Part shown: positions 1,665 to 9,346 of the stretch, piece by piece | Layout: every line of letters begins with the position of its first letter | How positions within the stretch are numbered: the stretch's first letter is position 1 | Translations under genes and position numbers: made by a program | The notes under the pieces: model-generated | Databases searched by the model: none | What the model was told of the DNA's origin: nothing | What the model saw: the letters and a program-made list of their open reading frames with translations, nothing else | Source of the DNA: a virus | Taxonomy: Duplodnaviria > Heunggongvirae > Uroviricota > Caudoviricetes | IMG/VR virus record: IMGVR_UViG_2698536418_000009 | Location: 1-10,929 of that record | DNA length: 10,929 nt | Reading direction: 5' to 3' (one strand)

Positions 1665-2351
1665 TTACCAAGTGCGCGATGACCAGAATACTCTACCTAT
1701 AACGTGAATTCTGGAACGCCTATCTTCGAAGGTGAGTATTTCATCTGGATACTCATCTTTATTGAAACTTCTTAGAATCAGACCACCGTCAGGTAAATTG
1801 ATCAATATTTTAACTCTAAGTAATACGCCATCACGTATGGCATAAAGATCCCCATCACGAATAGGAACCGTTTGGGAAACATCAACAGCAACAAAATCTC
1901 CATTGTTAAGTACAGGTAGTAAACTATTGCCCCAAATTTTTACGATCTTTGCATTGGAGACACATACACCAGCTTTTCTTAAATCAATCCTTCTTAGCGG
2001 GAACCAGTCTACAGTTGATTCAACTATTTCAGCCAAACATCCATTACCCGCTGATAACTCGACATCTAGGACTGGAATGTTTGCAAAAATGTCAGGATCT
2101 AATGCTGTACTTTCAGCCTCCTTTACAACAAGGTCTGGGAAAGACGCGTTATCCTCAATTCCCAATTGCAACCACTTTTGAGAAACCCCTAACACTTTAG
2201 CAATCTCTTTAATTTTCCGAGGCTGTTGAGTTTCTCCATTCTCGATTTTCGCTACGGATTGTTGTGAAAGCCCAATTTTTTCAGCTAGTTGCGCCTGACT
2301 CATTCCTGCTTTTTCTCTTTCGCTTTTTAGTCTTTCTGCCAATGTTTTCAC
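1665..2351 (-). CDS. cI: Phage CI-type repressor: N-terminal XRE-family HTH plus C-terminal S24 (LexA-like) autopeptidase domain
   Basis: 228-aa ORF. N-terminus has the HTH_XRE signature (AGMSQAQLAEKIGLSQQSVAKIENGETQQP); the C-terminal half has the size and layout of an S24 peptidase domain, but I did not identify the catalytic Ser/Lys. Transcribed divergently from the cro-like gene. GTG start with GAGGGGGA SD. Confidence 0.88.
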   Translation of the reverse strand: MKTLAERLKSEREKAGMSQAQLAEKIGLSQQSVAKIENGETQQPRKIKEIAKVLGVSQKWLQLGIEDNASFPDLVVKEAESTALDPDIFANIPVLDVELSAGNGCLAEIVESTVDWFPLRRIDLRKAGVCVSNAKIVKIWGNSLLPVLNNGDFVAVDVSQTVPIRDGDLYAIRDGVLLRVKILINLPDGGLILRSFNKDEYPDEILTFEDRRSRIHVIGRVFWSSRTW

Positions 2352-2488: not shown

Positions 2489-2737
2489 ATGACACCTGAG
2501 CAATTAGCCTTATCAGAGGCAATCGCTCTGGCTGGTGGTCAATCAGAATTGGCTCGGAAGCTCACAGCCAGCAGTGGTCGTTTAGTAAAGCAACAACATG
2601 TCTGGAACTGGTTGAACAGAGAAAAGCGTCCCCCTGCAAAGCTCTCGATATTTATTGAAATGACCACTGGCGTATCAAAAGAAAAATTACGTCCAGATAT
2701 TTTTCAAAAGATTAAAGACTTATCAGATGGAAAGTAA
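2489..2737 (+). CDS. Cro-like / YdaS-family HTH regulator (82 aa)
   Basis: First gene rightward of the immunity promoter region. Motif AGGQSELARKL ... RPDIF is typical of the small Cro/YdaS-like (DUF1870-type) prophage regulators. AGGAGA SD 4 nt upstream of the ATG. Confidence 0.7.
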   Translation: MTPEQLALSEAIALAGGQSELARKLTASSGRLVKQQHVWNWLNREKRPPAKLSIFIEMTTGVSKEKLRPDIFQKIKDLSDGK

Positions 2738-3197
2738 CCACAGTTTTAAGGAGATAGCCGTGGGTAAGCATCACTGGAAAGTAGAAAAACAGCCTGAGTG
2801 GTACGTGAAAGCTGTCAGAAAAACTATCGCAACGTTGCCGGGTGGTTACGCTGAAGCAGCTGACTGGCTGGATGTAACAGAGAACGCATTATTTAACCGC
2901 CTTCGTGCCGATGGCGATCAGATTTTCCCGCTGGGATGGGCAATGATTTTGCAACGTGCTGGTGGAACTCACTTCATTGCTGACGCTGTGGCGCAGTCTG
3001 CAAATGGCGTCTTTGTGTCTCTTCCTGACGTCGAGGATGTGGACAACGCCGATATAAACCAGCGCCTGCTGGAAGTCATCGAACAGATCGGGAGTTACTC
3101 AAAGCAGATTCGTTCGGCAATCGAAGATGGGGTAGTGGAGCCACACGAGCAGACAGCAATTAATGATGAGTTGTATCTGTCAATTTCGAAGCTCTAG
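2727..3197 (+). CDS. CII-like early regulator (phage CII/CP76- or YdaT-type), 145-156 aa
   Basis: Sits immediately after the cro-like gene; size and position fit CII-like prophage regulators. ATG at 2727 overlaps the cro-like stop; an in-frame GTG at 2760 has a strong AAGGAG SD (2748-2753), so the true start may be 2760. Confidence 0.55.
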   Translation: MESNHSFKEIAVGKHHWKVEKQPEWYVKAVRKTIATLPGGYAEAADWLDVTENALFNRLRADGDQIFPLGWAMILQRAGGTHFIADAVAQSANGVFVSLPDVEDVDNADINQRLLEVIEQIGSYSKQIRSAIEDGVVEPHEQTAINDELYLSISKL

Positions 3198-3492
3198 GAG
3201 CATGCAGCACTGGTCTACAAAATCTTTTGCGCTCCAGAAGAGAGTAACGCCCGCGAGTGTGCAGCTCCGGGCGTCGTGGCGTCGATTGCTTCTGGTTGTG
3301 GAGAAACTAACGCATGAACAGTTTAACAACACACTACCGTCGCTCGCAACTGATTGCGCTTCCTGTACCGGGTGGAAAAGCGAAGGTGGAGTATTGCTAT
3401 GCAGTGAATGTACCAGGTGACAGGGAAATTGTAACCCACAGCTTTGCAGAGTGGGCTGTGGGTGATTTCAACCGGCAGAAGGAGACAGTCCT

Positions 3493-3705
3493 TTGCGACA
3501 AGTTAACCGCTGGTTCAAAGATCACTACGGAGTGCCCGTCAGAGTCATTCGTTGGGAGCCGGAAACACAACGGGTTATCTACCTCCGTGAAGGCTATGAA
3601 CATGAATGCTTCAGTCCGCTCGAACAGTTTCGTCGTAAATTCAGGGAAATAGAGGTCGGTCATGAGCCTGTTAATGACATCCCAGCCCATTGTGATAAAT
3701 CGTGA
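3493..3705 (+). CDS. Small conserved protein (70 aa, TTG start) directly upstream of and overlapping the O-like gene
   Basis: AAGGAG SD (3479-3484) 8 nt upstream of TTG 3493. All five nucleotide differences between the two copies in this ORF (3573, 3588, 3600, 3606, 3615) are synonymous third-position changes in this frame and would be nonsynonymous in the overlapping frame of ORF 3314..3652. Confidence 0.5.
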
Positions 3706-4021
3706 TCTTGCATGCCGTATTGGTCTGAATGAGGCAATTGTGTTGCAGCAGCTTCATTACTGGCTGAATGAAACGAATTCAGGCACTGAGCATGGCGGAA
3801 TTCGCTGGGTTTATAACACGACAGAACAGTGGCTGGAGCAGTTTCCGTTCTGGTCAGAGTCCACTCTGAAACGCACATTTGCAAGCCTGAAATCACTTGG
3901 GGTTTTGCGTCGCGAGCAACTCAATAAATCGAAGCGTGACATGACCAACTTCTACACGATCAACTATGAAAGTGAGCTTTTAGAAGAGGTCAAAATGCAC
4001 TTCTCCATCGGGTCAAAGTGA
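3662..4021 (+). CDS. O-like replication initiator, N-terminal DNA-binding domain (119 aa), separated from the C-terminal domain by an in-iteron TGA stop and frame change
   Basis: GAGGT SD before ATG 3662. Product ends ...HFSIGSK inside the iteron array. The next ORF (4026..4631) is in a different frame and matches the C-terminal two-thirds of the intact O-like protein at 6552..7493. Confidence 0.55.
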   Translation: MSLLMTSQPIVINRDLACRIGLNEAIVLQQLHYWLNETNSGTEHGGIRWVYNTTEQWLEQFPFWSESTLKRTFASLKSLGVLRREQLNKSKRDMTNFYTINYESELLEEVKMHFSIGSK

Positions 4022-4138
4022 CCTGATGGATGGGCGCAAAATGATACGATCCATTGGTTCAAAACGACACGCTGTCATCGGGTCAAAATGGCCCAATGAT
4101 CTTACAGAGAATACAACAGAGATTACTACAGAGAATAA
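3986..4138 (+). repeat. Candidate ori iterons of copy 1: four GGTCAAA-core repeats (3986-4000, 4008-4023, 4054-4070, 4078-4094) plus three tandem 12-bp A-rich repeats (4103-4138)
   Basis: Direct repeats GAGGTCAAAATGCAC / TCGGGTCAAAGTGACC / TTGGTTCAAAACGACAC / TCGGGTCAAAATGGCCC, then TACAGAGAATAC / AACAGAGATTAC / TACAGAGAATAA. They sit at the N-domain/C-domain junction of the O-like gene, the same place lambda ori sits in gene O. Confidence 0.5.
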
Positions 4139-4631
4139 AACCTCTTCTCGTCCGGACGCTTCGCAACCGGACACGCAAACGGCTGAACAGGAGTTTTTAA
4201 CTCGCCATCCTGATGCGGTTGTATTCAGCCCTAAAAAGCGCCAGTGGGGAACGCAGGATGATTTGACCTGCGCACAGTGGCTCTGGAAAAAAATCATCGC
4301 CCTGTACGAGCAGGCCGCCGAATGTGACGGCGAGGTGGTTCGTCCCAAAGAACCGAACTGGACAGCATGGGCAAACGAAATTCGCCTGATGTGTGTGCAG
4401 GATGGTCGTACTCACAAACAAATCTGCGAGATGTACAGCCGCGTCAGCCGCGATCCGTTCTGGTGCCGTAACGTGCTCAGCCCGTCGAAGTTGCGGGAAA
4501 AATGGGATGAGCTTTCCCTGCGCTTATCGCCGTCCGTCAGCACGCACACAGAAAAACGTGAAGACCCGTACTTCAAAGCCAGTTACGACAACGTGGACTA
4601 CAGCCAGATCCCGGCAGGATTCAGGGGGTGA
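4026..4631 (+). CDS. O-like replication initiator, C-terminal domain ORF (201 aa); possibly the 3' part of a disrupted O gene
   Basis: Residues from TSSRPDASQPDTQTAEQ onward match the C-terminal region of ORF 6552..7493 apart from a few substitutions. Weak SD before ATG 4026. Confidence 0.55.
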   Translation: MDGRKMIRSIGSKRHAVIGSKWPNDLTENTTEITTENKTSSRPDASQPDTQTAEQEFLTRHPDAVVFSPKKRQWGTQDDLTCAQWLWKKIIALYEQAAECDGEVVRPKEPNWTAWANEIRLMCVQDGRTHKQICEMYSRVSRDPFWCRNVLSPSKLREKWDELSLRLSPSVSTHTEKREDPYFKASYDNVDYSQIPAGFRG

Positions 4632-4633
4632 TC

Positions 4634-4726
4634 ATGAGTCTGTTAAATGACGTTCAGAAATTCATTGAAGCCCATCCGGGCTGTACTTCCGGAGACATTG
4701 CGGATGCTTTTTACGTGGGGGCTTAA
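4634..4726 (+). pseudogene. 30-codon remnant of the PerC-like regulator gene (in-frame 396-bp internal deletion relative to 7496..7984)
   Basis: Encodes MSLLNDVQKFIEAHPGCTSGDIADAF + YVGA, i.e. the first 26 and last 4 codons of the 162-aa copy-2 protein. Deletion junction near 4708-4712 in a short T-run. The stop/start overlap TAATG with the methyltransferase gene is retained. Confidence 0.5.
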
Positions 4727-5379
4727 TGAGTAATAAATATTGCCAGGCGCTGGTAGAACTGCGGAACAAACCAGCCCATGAACTGAAGGAAGTGGGCGAT
4801 CAGTGGCGCACGCCGGACAACATTTTCTGGGGAATTAACACCTTGTTTGGTCCGTTTGTTCTGGATCTGTTCACTGACGGTGATAACGCCAAATGTGCCG
4901 CGTATTACACGGCGGAAGACAACGCGCTGGCGCATGACTGGTCAGAACGTCTTGCGGAGCTTAAAGGTGCTGCCTTTGGCAATCCCCCGTACAGCCGCGC
5001 CAGTCAGCATGAGGGGCAATACATCACCGGCATGCGTTACATCATGAAGCATGCCAGTGCCATGCGTGATAAAGGCGGGCGCTATGTTTTCCTGATCAAA
5101 GCTGCCACCGGCGAAGTGTGGTGGCCGGAAGGTGCAGATCATATTGCTTTTATTCGCGGGCGTATTGGTTTTGAACTGCCTGCCTGGTTTATCCCGAAAG
5201 ACGAAAAGCAGGTGCCAACAGGTGCTTTCTTCGCTGGTGCTATTGCTGTTTTCGACAAGACCTGGAAGGGACCGGCAATCAGCTACATCGGGCGCGATGA
5301 ACTTGAGGCATGTGGTGAGGCATTTCTGGCGCAGGTTCGCCAGCAGGCGGAAAAACTGGTCAGGGAGATGGTGGCATGA
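4726..5379 (+). CDS. Phage DNA N6-adenine methyltransferase (orphan, Dam-like), copy 1
   Basis: 217 aa with the catalytic motif GNPPYS (the (D/N/S)PP(Y/F) motif IV of N6-adenine MTases). Start overlaps the upstream stop (TAATG); stop overlaps the rusA start (ATGA). Confidence 0.8.
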   Translation: MSNKYCQALVELRNKPAHELKEVGDQWRTPDNIFWGINTLFGPFVLDLFTDGDNAKCAAYYTAEDNALAHDWSERLAELKGAAFGNPPYSRASQHEGQYITGMRYIMKHASAMRDKGGRYVFLIKAATGEVWWPEGADHIAFIRGRIGFELPAWFIPKDEKQVPTGAFFAGAIAVFDKTWKGPAISYIGRDELEACGEAFLAQVRQQAEKLVREMVA

Positions 5380-5765
5380 AGCTAATACTGCCTTTTCCGC
5401 CCAGCGTGAACACGTACTGGCGACACCCCAACAAAGGGGCATTTGCTGGTAAGAGCCTGATAAGCGAGGCGGGGCGAAAATTTCAGAGCGCGGCGTGTGC
5501 CGCCATCATTGAGCAGTTACGTCGTCTGCCGAAACCAACGTCGGCACCTGCTTCAGTGGAGATCGTGTTGTTTCCTCCGGATAACAGGATCCGCGATCTG
5601 GACAACTATAACAAGGCGCTGTTTGACGCCCTGACCCACGCGGGTGTGTGGGAAGACGACAGTCAGGTGAAAAGAATGCTGGTGGAGTGGGGACCGGTTA
5701 TCCCGAAAGGGAAGGTCGAGATCACTATCAGTAAGTACGAGAAAACGGCGGGTGCAGCCGCCTGA
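5376..5765 (+). CDS. rusA: RusA-family Holliday junction resolvase, copy 1
   Basis: 129 aa; MKLILPFPPSVNTYW... and RDLDNYNKALFDALTHAGVWEDDSQV follow the RusA layout. Typical nin-region position. Confidence 0.85.
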   Translation: MKLILPFPPSVNTYWRHPNKGAFAGKSLISEAGRKFQSAACAAIIEQLRRLPKPTSAPASVEIVLFPPDNRIRDLDNYNKALFDALTHAGVWEDDSQVKRMLVEWGPVIPKGKVEITISKYEKTAGAAA

Positions 5766-5784
5766 TCAAGAGGAGAAACGAAGT

Positions 5785-6207
5785 ATGAATAATCTGATGG
5801 TCATTGATGGTATTGAAGTTCGTCGTGATGTTTATGGGCGTTACAGCCTGAACGATCTACATCACGCAGCAGTAGCATCTGGTGCAAATGCCAGAACCAA
5901 GGAGCCAGGAAAGTTTCTTTCCAGCCAACAAACTGTTGAACTTGTTCATGAATTGACCAACACCCAGAATTTGGGTGTTGACCCGGTGAGTGTGATTCAT
6001 GGGGGAAATGAACGGGGAACGTATGTCTGCAAGGAACTGGTGTATGCCTATGCAATGTGGATCAGCCCGTCATTCCATCTGAAGGTGATCCGTACTTTCG
6101 ATATGGTAACCAGCGCACCGGAAAAATTATCCGGACAGGCTGCTGACAAGATGCAGGCTGGCGTGATCCTGCTGGACTTTATGCGATGTGGAGAAACTAA
6201 CGCATGA
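5785..6207 (+). CDS. KilA-N domain protein, copy 1, C-terminally truncated at the duplication junction (140 aa)
   Basis: AGGAG SD 9 nt before ATG 5785. Matches the first 133 residues of ORF 9366..10175, then diverges at 6186 into 7 novel codons (CGETNA plus stop) supplied by the start of unit 2. Confidence 0.65.
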
Positions 6208-6382
6208 ACAGTTTAACAACACACTACCGTCGCTCGCAACTGATTGCGCTTCCTGTACCGGGTGGAAAAGCGAAGGTGGAGTATTGCTATGCAGTAAATG
6301 TACCAGGTGACAGGGAAATTGTAACCCACAGCTTTGCAGAGTGGGCTGTGGGTGATTTCAACCGGCAGAAGGAGACAGTCCT

Positions 6383-6562
6383 TTGCGACAAGTTAACCGC
6401 TGGTTCAAAGATCACTACGGAGTGCCCGTCAGAGTCATTCGTTGGGAGCCGGAAACACAACGTGTTATCTACCTCCGCGAAGGCTATGAGCATGAGTGCT
6501 TCAGCCCGCTCGAACAGTTTCGTCGTAAATTCAGGGAAATAGAGGTCGGTCATGAGCACTAA
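6383..6562 (+). CDS. Small conserved protein, copy 2 (59 aa, TTG start), overlapping the start of the intact O-like gene
   Basis: Same SD and TTG as at 3493; coding sequence differs from copy 1 only by synonymous changes up to the repeat boundary. Below the ORF-track length cutoff. Confidence 0.45.
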
Positions 6563-7493
6563 ATTAACCGGCTATGTATGGGATGGTTGCGCTGCATCAG
6601 GCATGAAATTATCCAGCGTGGCAATTATGGCCCGCCTGGCTGATTTCAGTAATGACGAAGGTGTGTGCTGGCCATCAATTGAAACCATTGCCCGCCAGAT
6701 TGGCGCGGGGATGAGTACCGTCAGAACGGCTATCGCACGGCTGGAAGCAGAAGGCTGGTTAACGCGTAGGGCGCGTCGCCAGGGTAACCGCAATGCGTCG
6801 AATGTTTATCAGCTTAACGTTGCGAAGCTTCAGGCAGCGGCATTTTCTCAACTGTCAGATTCTGACCCGTCAAAATCTGACGCATCAAAATCTGACCCGT
6901 CAAAATTTGATGCGTCGAAATCTGGCAAAAAAGCGGGTTTTCACCCGTCAGAATCTGGTGGGGATCCGTCAGTAAAATCAAAACATGATCCGTCAGATAA
7001 AAAAACTTCTCGTCCGGACGCTTCGCAACCGGACACGCAGACGGCTGAACAGGATTTTTTAACTCGCCATCCTGATGCGGTTGTATTCAGCCCTAAAAAG
7101 CGCCAGTGGGGGACGCAGGATGATTTGACCTGCGCACAGTGGCTCTGGAAAAAAATCATCGCCCTGTACGAGCATGCCGCCGAATGTGACGGCGAGGTGG
7201 TTCGTCCCAAAGAACCGAACTGGACAGCCTGGGCAAACGAAATTCGCCTGATGTGTGTGCAGGATGGTCGTACTCATAAACAAATCTGCGAGATGTACAG
7301 CCGCGTCAGTCGCGATCCGTTCTGGTGCCGTAACGTGCTCAGCCCGTCGAAGCTGCGGGAAAAATGGGATGAGCTTTCCCTGCGCTTATCGCCGTCCGTC
7401 AGCACGTACACCGAAAAACGCGAAGACCCGTACTTCAAAGCCAGTTACGACAACGTGGACTACAGCCAGATCCCGGCAGGATTCAGGGGGTGA
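6552..7493 (+). CDS. O-like replication initiator (replisome organizer), intact, 313 aa: N-terminal winged-helix DNA-binding domain, iteron-encoded linker, conserved C-terminal domain
   Basis: GAGGT SD 5 nt before ATG 6552. The N-terminal 90 aa look like a helix-turn-helix replication-initiator fold. The linker is encoded by tandem 15-bp repeats (SDPSK/SDASK). C-terminal domain shared with ORF 4026..4631. Confidence 0.75.
   Translation: MSTKLTGYVWDGCAASGMKLSSVAIMARLADFSNDEGVCWPSIETIARQIGAGMSTVRTAIARLEAEGWLTRRARRQGNRNASNVYQLNVAKLQAAAFSQLSDSDPSKSDASKSDPSKFDASKSGKKAGFHPSESGGDPSVKSKHDPSDKKTSRPDASQPDTQTAEQDFLTRHPDAVVFSPKKRQWGTQDDLTCAQWLWKKIIALYEHAAECDGEVVRPKEPNWTAWANEIRLMCVQDGRTHKQICEMYSRVSRDPFWCRNVLSPSKLREKWDELSLRLSPSVSTYTEKREDPYFKASYDNVDYSQIPAGFRG
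6861..7006 (+). repeat. Candidate ori iterons of copy 2: four tandem 15-bp repeats (consensus about CCGTCAAAATCTGAC, 6866-6925), an A-rich tract, and three degenerate CCGTCAG-containing repeats
   Basis: CCGTCAAAATCTGAC / GCATCAAAATCTGAC / CCGTCAAAATTTGAT / GCGTCGAAATCTGGC, then GGCAAAAAAGCGGG, then CCCGTCAGAATCTGG, TCCGTCAGTAAAATC, TCCGTCAGATAAAAAAAC. Located inside the O-like gene linker. Confidence 0.55.
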
Positions 7494-7495
7494 TC

Positions 7496-7984
7496 ATGAG
7501 TCTTTTGAATGACGTTCAGAAATTCATTGAAGCCCATCCGGGGTGTACTTCCGGAGACATTGCGGATGCTTTTGCAGGTTACTCACGACAGCGCGTTCTG
7601 CAGTCAGCAAGCAAGTTACGTCAGAGTGGGCGTGTGGCTCACCGTTGTGAAGGGGATACACGCAGACATTTCCCGCGGCTGACTGAGATACCGCAGGAGC
7701 CGGAACCGCAACCAGTTCGTGAATCCAGACCTGTGCGCAATTTCTATGTCGGCACTAACGATCCCCGGGTGATTTTGTGCCTGACCCGCCAGGCGGAAGA
7801 ACTGGAGTCCAGGGGCTTATACCGTCGTGCTGCAACGGTGTGGATGGCGGCATTCCGTGAAAGCCACTCCCAGCAAGAGCGAAACAATTTTCTGGCGCGT
7901 CGTGAGCGGTGTTTACGGAAAAGCAGCAAGCGCGCTGCATCGGGTGAAGAGTGGTATCTGTCAGGGAATTACGTGGGGGCTTAA
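7496..7984 (+). CDS. PerC-like transcriptional regulator with N-terminal HTH-like region (162 aa)
   Basis: C-terminal motif AEELESRGLYRRAATVWMAAF resembles the PerC/Pch family signature as I remember it. AGGGGG SD before ATG 7496. Stop overlaps the MTase start (TAATG). Confidence 0.5.
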   Translation: MSLLNDVQKFIEAHPGCTSGDIADAFAGYSRQRVLQSASKLRQSGRVAHRCEGDTRRHFPRLTEIPQEPEPQPVRESRPVRNFYVGTNDPRVILCLTRQAEELESRGLYRRAATVWMAAFRESHSQQERNNFLARRERCLRKSSKRAASGEEWYLSGNYVGA

Positions 7985-8637
7985 TGAGTAATAAATATTG
8001 CCAGGCGCTGGTGGAGCTGCGGAACAAACCAGCCCATGAACTGAAGGAAGTGGGCGATCAGTGGCGCACGCCGGACAACATTTTCTGGGGAATTAACACC
8101 CTGTTTGGCCCGTTTGTTCTGGATCTGTTTACTGATGGTGATAACGCCAAATGCGCCGCGTATTACACTGCGGAAGACAACGCGCTGGCGCATGACTGGT
8201 CAGAACGTCTTGCGGAGCTTAAAGGTGCTGCCTTTGGTAATCCCCCGTACAGCCGCGCCAGTCAGCATGAGGGGCAATACATCACCGGCATGCGTTACAT
8301 CATGAAGCATGCCAGTGCCATGCGTGATAAAGGCGGGCGCTATGTTTTCCTGATCAAAGCTGCCACCAGCGAAGTTTGGTGGCCGGAAGATGCAGACCAT
8401 ATTGCTTTTATTCGCGGGCGTATTGGTTTTGAACTGCCAGCCTGGTTTATCCCGAAGGACGAGAAGCAGGTGCCGACAGGCGCTTTCTTCGCTGGTGCTA
8501 TTGCTGTTTTCGACAAGACCCGGAAGGGACCGGCAATCAGCTACATCGGGCGCGATGAACTTGAGGCATGTGGTGAGGCCTTTCTGGCGCAGGTTCGCCA
8601 GCAGGCGGAAAAACTGGTCAGGGAGATGGCGGCATGA
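7984..8637 (+). CDS. Phage DNA N6-adenine methyltransferase (orphan, Dam-like), copy 2
   Basis: 217 aa with GNPPYS motif. Differs from copy 1 by about 20 nt substitutions counted by eye, giving 4 amino-acid changes. The track start at 7951 is an upstream GTG; the ATG at 7984 matches copy 1. Confidence 0.8.
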   Translation: MSNKYCQALVELRNKPAHELKEVGDQWRTPDNIFWGINTLFGPFVLDLFTDGDNAKCAAYYTAEDNALAHDWSERLAELKGAAFGNPPYSRASQHEGQYITGMRYIMKHASAMRDKGGRYVFLIKAATSEVWWPEDADHIAFIRGRIGFELPAWFIPKDEKQVPTGAFFAGAIAVFDKTRKGPAISYIGRDELEACGEAFLAQVRQQAEKLVREMAA

Positions 8638-8960
8638 CGACGTTAACTCAATGCCAGCAGCAGGTGCTGGATATGCTGATTTCTTACCAGCAAGAACGTG
8701 GCTTTCCGCCAACCAATCAGGAGGTGGCAACCATGCTGGGATACCGTTCGGTGAATGCAGCGGTGGAGCATCTTCGCGCACTGGAGAAAAAAGGCGTCAT
8801 CACGATAAAGCGTGGCGTGGCCCGGGGGATAACTCTTCATACCGCGGTGAAGGACGACGACAGCGAGGCGGTCGGGATTATCCGCGCACTGCTTGCCGGT
8901 GAGGAAAACGCCAGGCTGCGTGCAGCCCACTGGTTACATGAGAGGGGCCTGAAAGTATGA
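8634..8960 (+). CDS. LexA N-terminal DNA-binding-domain protein lacking the S24 peptidase domain (108 aa)
   Basis: TQCQQQVLDMLISYQQERGFPPTNQEVATMLGYRSVNAAVEHLRALEKKGVITIKRGVARGITL aligns with the E. coli LexA winged-helix DNA-binding domain (...[62 protein letters not shown]). No peptidase domain follows. ATGA overlaps at both ends. Confidence 0.7.
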   Translation: MTTLTQCQQQVLDMLISYQQERGFPPTNQEVATMLGYRSVNAAVEHLRALEKKGVITIKRGVARGITLHTAVKDDDSEAVGIIRALLAGEENARLRAAHWLHERGLKV

Positions 8961-9346
8961 AGCTGATCTTGCCTTTCCCGCCCAGCGTGAACACGTACTG
9001 GCGACACCCCAACAAAGGGGCGTTTGCTGGTAAGAGTCTGATAAGCGCAGCGGGGCGCAAATTCCAGAGCGCGGCGTGCGCAGCAATAGTTGAGCAGTTA
9101 CGTCGTCTGCCGAAACCAACGTCGGCACCTGCTTCAGTGGAGATCGTGTTGTTTCCTCCGGATAACCGGATCCGCGATCTGGACAACTATAACAAGGCGC
9201 TGTTTGACGCCCTGACCCATGCGGGTGTGTGGGAAGACGACAGTCAGGTGAAAAGAATGCTGGTGGAGTGGGGACCGGTTATCCCGAAAGGGAAGGTCGA
9301 GATCACTATCAGTAAGTACGAGAAAACGGCGGGTGCAGCCGCCTGA
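8957..9346 (+). CDS. rusA: RusA-family Holliday junction resolvase, copy 2
   Basis: 129 aa, 2 amino-acid differences from copy 1. Start overlaps the stop of the upstream LexA-DBD gene. Confidence 0.85.
   Translation: MKLILPFPPSVNTYWRHPNKGAFAGKSLISAAGRKFQSAACAAIVEQLRRLPKPTSAPASVEIVLFPPDNRIRDLDNYNKALFDALTHAGVWEDDSQVKRMLVEWGPVIPKGKVEITISKYEKTAGAAA

Follow-up and report, generated by a model that had tools for sequence, protein, structure and literature searches.

Overlapping ymfM and DUF4222 reading frames upstream of the replication gene O in an e14-like prophage

Which reading frame is translated between the ymfL gene and the replication gene O of e14-like prophages? The question is raised by a 10,929-nt stretch of DNA (IMG/VR virus record IMGVR_UViG_2698536418_000009; the whole stretch is called the window here), in which an e14/SfII-like lambdoid prophage of Escherichia coli has its immunity and replication genes. 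Two open reading frames (ORFs) share the plus strand at this place. The first is ymfM (3314 to 3652, 112 codons), a homologue of the e14 gene b1148, the SfiC cell-division inhibitor locus. The second is a TTG-initiated ORF (3493 to 3705, 70 aa) coding for a DUF4222 protein, the 3' end of which lies inside the O-like gene. The overlap comprises 160 nt (3493 to 3652), with the ymfM frame one base 3' of the DUF4222 frame. The original prediction, made from the sequence alone, regarded the second ORF as the translated one and ORF 3314-3652 as its competitor, and allowed for a 5' gene in the other frame or a -1 frameshift product. According to the comparative analysis presented below, ymfM and DUF4222 are most likely both translated.

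The prediction was based on a duplication within the window. The duplicated unit (3297 to 3667 in copy 1 and 6187 to 6557 in copy 2, both on the plus strand) starts with the last six ymfL codons, continues across ymfM and DUF4222 and ends a few codons into the replication gene. As had been stated, it begins just 5' of the ymfM translation signals, its first base being 3 nt from a possible Shine-Dalgarno (SD) sequence GGAG (3300 to 3303, at a distance of 10 nt from the ATG) and 17 nt from the ATG itself (3314). The copies differ at six sites: 3406 G/A, 3573 G/T, 3588 T/C, 3600 A/G, 3606 A/G and 3615 T/C. The predicted effects of these differences were reproduced. The five differences at 3573 to 3615 all occupy third positions of the TTG-initiated ORF and leave its peptide identical (MRQVNRW...REIEVGHE); in the protein of ORF 3314-3652 the same five changes are all replacements (G>V, V>A, N>S, N>S, V>A). 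The difference at 3406 is silent in the 3314 frame (GTG/GTA). The chance of five out of five changes falling on one codon phase is approximately (1/3)^5 = 0.004.

Homologous loci allow the same comparison on a wider scale. A genome-wide scan yielded 46 loci (Escherichia, Shigella, Citrobacter, Enterobacter, Kosakonia, Kluyvera, Pantoea, Phytobacter, Leclercia, Atlantibacter and others), from which 20 diverged lineages were taken for measuring divergence; the wider set contains about 50 loci from a dozen enterobacterial genera. The differences at the first, second and third codon positions of DUF4222 amount to 0.18/0.13/0.49 in the 20 lineages. Together with a match of ORF 3493 to the Pfam family DUF4222 (PF13973) at 66.5 bits (cut-off 27), in which residues 2-53 cover profile positions 3-52 of 53, this pattern identifies the TTG-initiated ORF as a real, protein-constrained gene, in agreement with the original prediction. 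The ORF also belongs to phrog_1343, and almost all of the 139 database relatives of the protein are tagged PF13973. The product is predicted to be a Tudor/SH3-like beta-barrel of approximately 59 residues (AlphaFold models a small beta-barrel with a mean predicted local distance difference test score, pLDDT, of 83). The gene is equipped with an AAGGAG SD sequence (3479 to 3484, plus strand) 8 nt before the TTG, and a purine-rich SD run precedes the ATG, GTG or TTG start of DUF4222 in all 20 representative lineages. Copy 1 overlaps the O-like start (3662) by 44 nt, as predicted. Copy 2 (6383 to 6562, plus strand, 59 aa, TTG start) is identical to an unannotated ORF of E. coli K-12, and its 3' end, including the stop, extends 11 nt into the intact O-like gene, which begins with the ATG at 6552.

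A further argument for translation of the family comes from RgdR (ECs1581) of the enterohaemorrhagic E. coli prophage CP-933C. This small DUF4222 protein is described as activating the locus of enterocyte effacement and type III secretion and as repressing motility (PMC10877973, PMC3378721), and at least one member of the family is thus translated and active. The RGD tripeptide of RgdR is required for activation of type III secretion (PMC3378721), whereas the DUF4222 protein of the window is devoid of it.

The first ORF has an equally clear identity. The ymfM product of the window shares 108 of 112 residues (96%) with K-12 YmfM (b1148, prophage e14), all four differences being located in the tail, and the ORF is a full-length match to phrog_1170. 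The window and e14 have the same neighbours (ymfK, ymfT, ymfL, ymfM, replication gene). The ymfL frame stops and ymfM starts within a shared ATGA; the K-12 genes likewise overlap by 4 nt, and 36 of 40 distinct junctions have ATGA at this place. A second copy of ymfM, again of 112 codons, occupies 6204 to 6542 on the plus strand. The part of ymfM outside the overlap (3314 to 3492, plus strand) codes for a conserved N-terminal domain of about 60 aa. AlphaFold models this domain with moderate confidence, the average pLDDT being 65-78 at residues 11-50 and decreasing to about 50 towards residue 60. The tail, i.e., the last 52 codons, is predicted to be disordered (pLDDT 31-39); it consists of 22% Ser and 56% Ser, Thr, Gly, Ala and Asn, with few hydrophobic residues. 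No match for YmfM or its stand-alone relatives was found in Pfam. NCBIfam gave no match, and the PADLOC defence library contains none for YmfM or for the DUF4222 protein.

The two parts also occur separately. Stand-alone ORFs for the N-terminal domain (59-65 codons) are present in Providencia, Hafnia and Citrobacter phages. In Providencia phage PSTRCR_117lys and Hafnia phage yong2 this ORF ends on the start of the next gene, without DUF4222 at that place, and in Citrobacter phage phiNP a Rha gene is located between the N-domain gene and DUF4222. DUF4222 alone is found directly 5' of the replication gene in Serratia, Yersinia and Elizabethkingia phages and in Escherichia phage CharmingMan. The ymfM N-domain and DUF4222 are therefore separable modules. 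Two loci, of Kosakonia quasisacchari (L032) and Phytobacter sp. V91 (L056), carry a stop inside DUF4222 with the ymfM frame still open; they may be decaying prophage copies, and they indicate that DUF4222 can be lost without closure of the ymfM frame.

Purifying selection at the protein level changes frame exactly at 3493, acting on ymfM before this point and on DUF4222 from there. Polymorphism was analyzed in 85 near-identical e14-type copies (54 haplotypes). Upstream of 3493 there are 25 variants, of which 17 are silent in the ymfM frame versus 8 non-silent, and all common variants are silent. The overlap contains 16 variable DUF4222 third-position sites, all of them silent in DUF4222 and non-synonymous in ymfM, including radical YmfM replacements (G>V/E, C>Y, S>L); the sole reverse site is 6539, silent in ymfM and changing I to V in DUF4222. 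On the divergence scale, the 20 lineages have an amino-acid identity of 0.75 across the overlap when it is read in the DUF4222 frame; the ymfM frame gives 0.45 and the unused third frame 0.44. Residue-level selection on the ymfM product was not detected in the overlap among these lineages, and was seen in the DUF4222 frame only. In the N-terminal part, an excess of third-position differences in the ymfM frame is observed within each of three diverged sequence types. The 5' gene in the other frame which the original prediction had allowed for is thus real: the first 60 or so codons of ORF 3314 constitute a conserved small gene. Codon substitution in homologues, proposed earlier as a check, confirmed constraint on the 3493 frame; the 3314 frame is constrained only up to 3492 and stays open beyond it. 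The notion of ORF 3314 as a mere competing frame accordingly holds for residue conservation in the overlap, but it fails for the conserved 5' gene and for the frame itself, which is actively kept open.

Openness of the ymfM frame is a general property of these loci. It is open in every locus in which an upstream ORF abuts DUF4222, over a span from about 170-240 nt upstream to +157, +160 or +163. In most loci the third frame meets a stop within 5-26 nt of where DUF4222 starts, and in a few it runs for 95-170 nt. The only DUF4222 codons able to create a ymfM-frame stop are those for Val, Leu or Ile which end in TA or TG and precede a purine. At the sites at risk (alignment columns 4, 16, 18, 19, 28 and 46) only codons ending in C or T are used. 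At safe sites with the same amino acids GTG and GTA make up 31%, CTG makes up 60% of CTN codons (column 31) and ATA 21%. According to parsimony on a neighbour-joining tree, none of 20 third-position changes at the sites at risk led to A or G, versus 98 of 206 at control sites (p about 1e-5). The chance of a stop-free ymfM frame, given the DUF4222 protein and the codon usage of neighbouring long ORFs, was computed exactly for 19 lineages and equals 0.03-0.19 per lineage (geometric mean 0.08). Six control DUF4222 genes lacking an abutting ymfM-type ORF have 2-7 stops in the equivalent frame. The ymfM frame is kept stop-free across DUF4222 through biased synonymous codon choice, and both frames are open in diverged homologues beyond chance.

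The end point of the ymfM frame is fixed as well, inside the SD sequence of the next gene. In the window the region 3650 to 3664 (plus strand) contains the ymfM stop TAG (3650-3652), the AGG core of the O SD sequence and the ATG of O at 3662. In 48 of 53 loci a gap of exactly 9 nt separates the ymfM stop from the downstream ATG, irrespective of the replication gene found there; upstream stop and downstream start are only a few nucleotides apart. Of 52 sequences, 50 supply this stop by way of an NTA codon of DUF4222 (ATA, TTA, GTA or CTA) with A or G as the next base, despite variation of the encoded residue between I, L and V.

These features are probably explained by two genuinely overlapping genes between ymfL and O, the ymfM frame being maintained for translational coupling to O. 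Since the N-terminal part is coding, ribosomes which translate it must go on to the first in-frame stop, and this stop never occurs earlier than the fixed site. Ribosomes on the ymfM N-domain would run through DUF4222, adding an unconstrained, disordered tail rich in Ser and Thr, and would come to a stop at the O ribosome-binding site. Termination followed by re-initiation would thereby keep O coupled to the upstream ORF, the chain leading from ymfL (via the ATGA overlap) to ymfM and then to O. DUF4222 would be produced independently from the same mRNA by means of its own SD sequence and TTG. The tail would be a by-product, or at most a spacer or linker. The most economical scenario is that coupling of the upstream ORF to O was preserved after DUF4222 had come to lie between them. 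The stand-alone N-domain genes, which also end on the next start, fit the coupling.

Several observations weigh against this explanation. No ribosome-profiling or proteomic report for either frame was found in the literature. The DUF4222 stop itself overlaps the O start and could provide coupling alone, in which case the need for ymfM read-through would have no explanation. The homologous loci are not fully independent, third-position identity averaging 0.54 among the 20 representatives; owing to this shared ancestry the product of the per-lineage probabilities overstates the significance, and the parsimony value is the safer figure. The conserved TA of the ymfM stop adjoins the SD sequence of O, and part of its conservation may serve that ribosome-binding site and not termination. 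In this window the ymfL gene contains a premature stop, and coupling from ymfL cannot operate here. CTG is avoided at column 46 as well, where no stop would result: Leu at this column (window positions about 3619-3621) is encoded by CTC or CTT throughout, and a CTG with G after it would yield Trp in the ymfM frame, so that this avoidance is not explained by stop avoidance. Finally, the overlap is rich in C at DUF4222 third positions (0.38, as compared with 0.28 for the neighbouring genes and 0.24 for DUF4222 genes standing alone). Column 46 and the C enrichment imply some further constraint besides stop avoidance, such as tail composition or codon optimisation. The C excess hints at a constraint on tail composition and is confounded by codon optimisation.

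The latter points lead to an alternative in which the frame is open because the tail itself is needed as a flexible, composition-constrained extension or linker, serving division inhibition, stability or partner binding. Enrichment of C and depletion of T at DUF4222 third positions, which result in the Ser content of 22% and the scarcity of hydrophobic residues, are in line with it, as is the avoidance of CTG where the consequence would be Trp and not a stop. The loci of SfV, ST64B and Citrobacter braakii provide an additional argument: they have no stop at the usual site, the frame enters an Ash-family domain to form an ORF of 278-383 aa, and the overlapped stretch acts there as a linker. However, the tail displays no conservation of residues and tolerates radical polymorphisms, the strict 9-nt distance between stop and ATG would be left unexplained, and the codon bias could equally reflect optimisation to the host. 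The need for the tail is considered an unlikely cause of the open frame. In these three loci (SfV orf37, L013, 652-1488; ST64B sb41, L012; Citrobacter braakii, L057) the 59-codon DUF4222 gene is nested wholly within the ORF of 278-383 codons carrying the Ash domain (PF10554). The nested gene is under purifying selection (differences by codon position 0.069/0.013/0.252). SfV possesses a second, diverged DUF4222-like ORF (orf38, 1481-1717) directly before the replication gene.

According to another view, DUF4222 is the only real gene in 3493-3652, and ORF 3314-3652 is an unselected chance run-on and an annotation artefact. The tail is indeed hardly more conserved than the unused frame (0.45 versus 0.44) and is predicted to be disordered, YmfM is altered by 16 of the 17 polymorphisms in the overlap, and sampled E. 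coli genomes annotated by the Prokaryotic Genome Annotation Pipeline (PGAP) have DUF4222 and no ymfM under the matching sequence. A run-on of this kind is nevertheless very improbable: its N-terminal part is clearly coding, the first in-frame stop never precedes the fixed site, and stop-creating synonymous codons are avoided in the overlap, while stand-alone DUF4222 genes do have stops there.

A programmed -1 ribosomal frameshift could be imagined to join the YmfM N-domain to DUF4222 in a product of about 119 aa. Upstream of the TTG the DUF4222 frame contains no stop for 27 nt, and rare database proteins (P0059, P0065) are exactly such YmfM-DUF4222 fusions. These entries comprise 1-14 members with differing junctions, as expected of indel alleles or sequencing errors. 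No X_XXY_YYZ slippery heptamer exists at the junction in the 20 diverged lineages, and stops in the DUF4222 frame occur 3-66 nt upstream of its start (3-6 nt in several lineages). The start codon and SD run are present in all 20 lineages, the junction sequence is not conserved and contains a 3-nt indel, and the predicted fold of 3445-3545 is not significant (z = -0.61). The frameshift product envisaged by the original prediction can hardly be upheld. Folds of 3445-3545 and 3610-3700 were no better than those of shuffled sequences, and no RNA family of Rfam was found in the whole window. A 6-bp hairpin pairing AAGGAG with the start region was rejected, being absent from Klebsiella homologues.

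An antisense gene at 3397-3690 (97 aa, minus strand) is practically out of the question, although this ORF is open in both copies (3397-3690 and 6287-6559; 90-97 codons) and annotated in the Klebsiella/Escherichia phage records MK416017 and ON470608: its first codon positions coincide with the highly variable third positions of DUF4222, so that the polymorphisms would mostly change the antisense protein, homologues of the ORF range in length from 51 to 115 aa, and it was rejected for this substitution phase and variable length.

The preferred reading, two overlapping genes with coupling to O, can be compared with known systems. Rz/Rz1 of phage lambda and the lysis gene of MS2 represent out-of-frame overlapping phage gene pairs. 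As in these pairs, two frames of the same strand extend over a long stretch, and the younger frame is poorly conserved, disordered and compositionally biased. Unlike them, the overprinted part is here only the C-terminal half of the upstream gene, and the measurable selection concerns ORF continuity and stop position and not residues. Termination/re-initiation is a mode of translational coupling in polycistronic operons. Three features resemble the arrangement in coupled operons: ymfL and ymfM overlap in ATGA, the ymfM frame terminates within the SD sequence of the next gene, 9 nt from its ATG, and the DUF4222 stop overlaps the O start. In the proposed coupling, unlike in such operons, ymfM would reach the O start only through a whole intervening gene in another frame. 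Judged by these sequence features, the locus is a well-supported new example of an out-of-frame overlapping phage gene pair with probable translational coupling.

The remaining part of the window has the layout of an immunity and replication region. A cI-like repressor gene (1665-2351, minus strand) is followed by a cro/YdaS-like gene (2489-2737) and the CII/YmfL-like gene ymfL (2727-3197); then come the ymfM/DUF4222 region and the O-like replication gene. The premature TAG of ymfL is located at 3195-3197 (KL*EHAALVYKIF versus KLQEHAALVYKIF in SfV and K-12) and shortens the product by about 39 residues. The rest of the ymfL frame runs on to the usual ATGA junction with ymfM (3314-3317), and the coupling of ymfL to ymfM is lost in the window as a consequence of the premature stop. 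At the equivalent place in strain 2013C-3264, ymfL is called a frameshifted pseudogene by PGAP. Only short ORFs are listed in the window at 1-1100, and the list leaves out ORFs running off the window end; small ORFs of the minus strand (862-1068 and 1128-1349) are situated to the right of the left end. In a related genome, genes of the YfdQ and YfdP families occupy positions corresponding to 1-1100.

The replication and nin-like module is present in tandem (3297-5765 and 6187-9346), its copies sharing four blocks of 94-99% identity. Module copy 2 has in addition a PerC-like gene (7490-7984) and a small gene (8634-8960), the counterpart of which in strain 2013C-3264 is a LexA-family regulator according to PGAP. 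At 6187 a truncated KilA-N/antirepressor ORF (5752-6207) is fused to the last six ymfL codons (CGETNA*). This looks like a recombination joint of two related prophage modules. The copy 1 O-like gene (3662-4631) is broken into 3662-4021 and 4026-4631, which are in different frames; the break is located among iteron-like repeats, with CATCGGGTCAAA occurring twice around 4005-4090. An intact 330-aa version of this gene is annotated in strain 2013C-3264. Its N-terminal domain in copy 1 differs from that of the intact copy 2 gene (6552-7493), and the C-terminal halves are 97% identical.

Annotation of the locus is split between two traditions, each of which misses one gene. In K-12 the DUF4222 ORF is intact (a 59-codon ORF identical to copy 2 of the window) and unannotated, and ymfM is annotated as 'cell division inhibitor YmfM'. 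The 371-nt unit matches about 2,000 of 5,426 E. coli genomes; DUF4222 and ymfL are annotated, and ymfM is not, in all 40 records sampled across the match ranking. Strain 2013C-3264 carries a 100% identical unit in which the equivalent of ORF 3493 is annotated by PGAP, in a gene layout different from that of the window.

This split affects the SfiC literature. Ansari et al. cloned the ymfM ORF in pBAD24, deleted ymfM by lambda Red and concluded that YmfM is SfiC; expression of the cloned K-12 ymfM led to filamentation and loss of the Z-ring (bioRxiv 10.1101/2020.11.19.390815). The overlapping frame is not mentioned in that work, and no report of a gene embedded in ymfM was found in a literature search. 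The e14 ymfM is published as a single gene; its ORF, however, contains the SD sequence, the TTG and codons 1-53 of 59 of DUF4222, and the published clone, as judged by its coordinates, holds the same segment, i.e., the whole Pfam domain. Deleting the ymfM ORF would take most of DUF4222 with it. Since clone and deletion affect both products, the published work does not settle which of them blocks division. The clone would make both products, the deletion would remove both, and the only residue-conserved information in the 3' half is DUF4222; it is therefore conceivable, albeit tentatively, that the SOS-inducible division block of e14 (SfiC) is due wholly or partly to embedded DUF4222, with the second half of ymfM only ferrying ribosomes to O. 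Two single-base changes tell the products apart and could settle the identity of SfiC: 3496 C>T stops DUF4222 (codon 2 becomes TGA) and is silent in ymfM (TGC>TGT), and 3504 T>A converts ymfM codon 64 to TAA and is silent in DUF4222 (GTT>GTA).

In K-12 the gene ymfM has a name and an assigned function, and it serves as a tool for obtaining filamentous cells, and its ORF contains a second, better-conserved gene. If SfiC were DUF4222, the second half of the ymfM ORF would exist only for the passage of ribosomes to the start of the replication gene. The locus offers a clean natural example in which selection keeps only the continuity and the end point of a reading frame. Selection of this kind points to a translational role, ribosome delivery or coupling, and not to the encoded residues.

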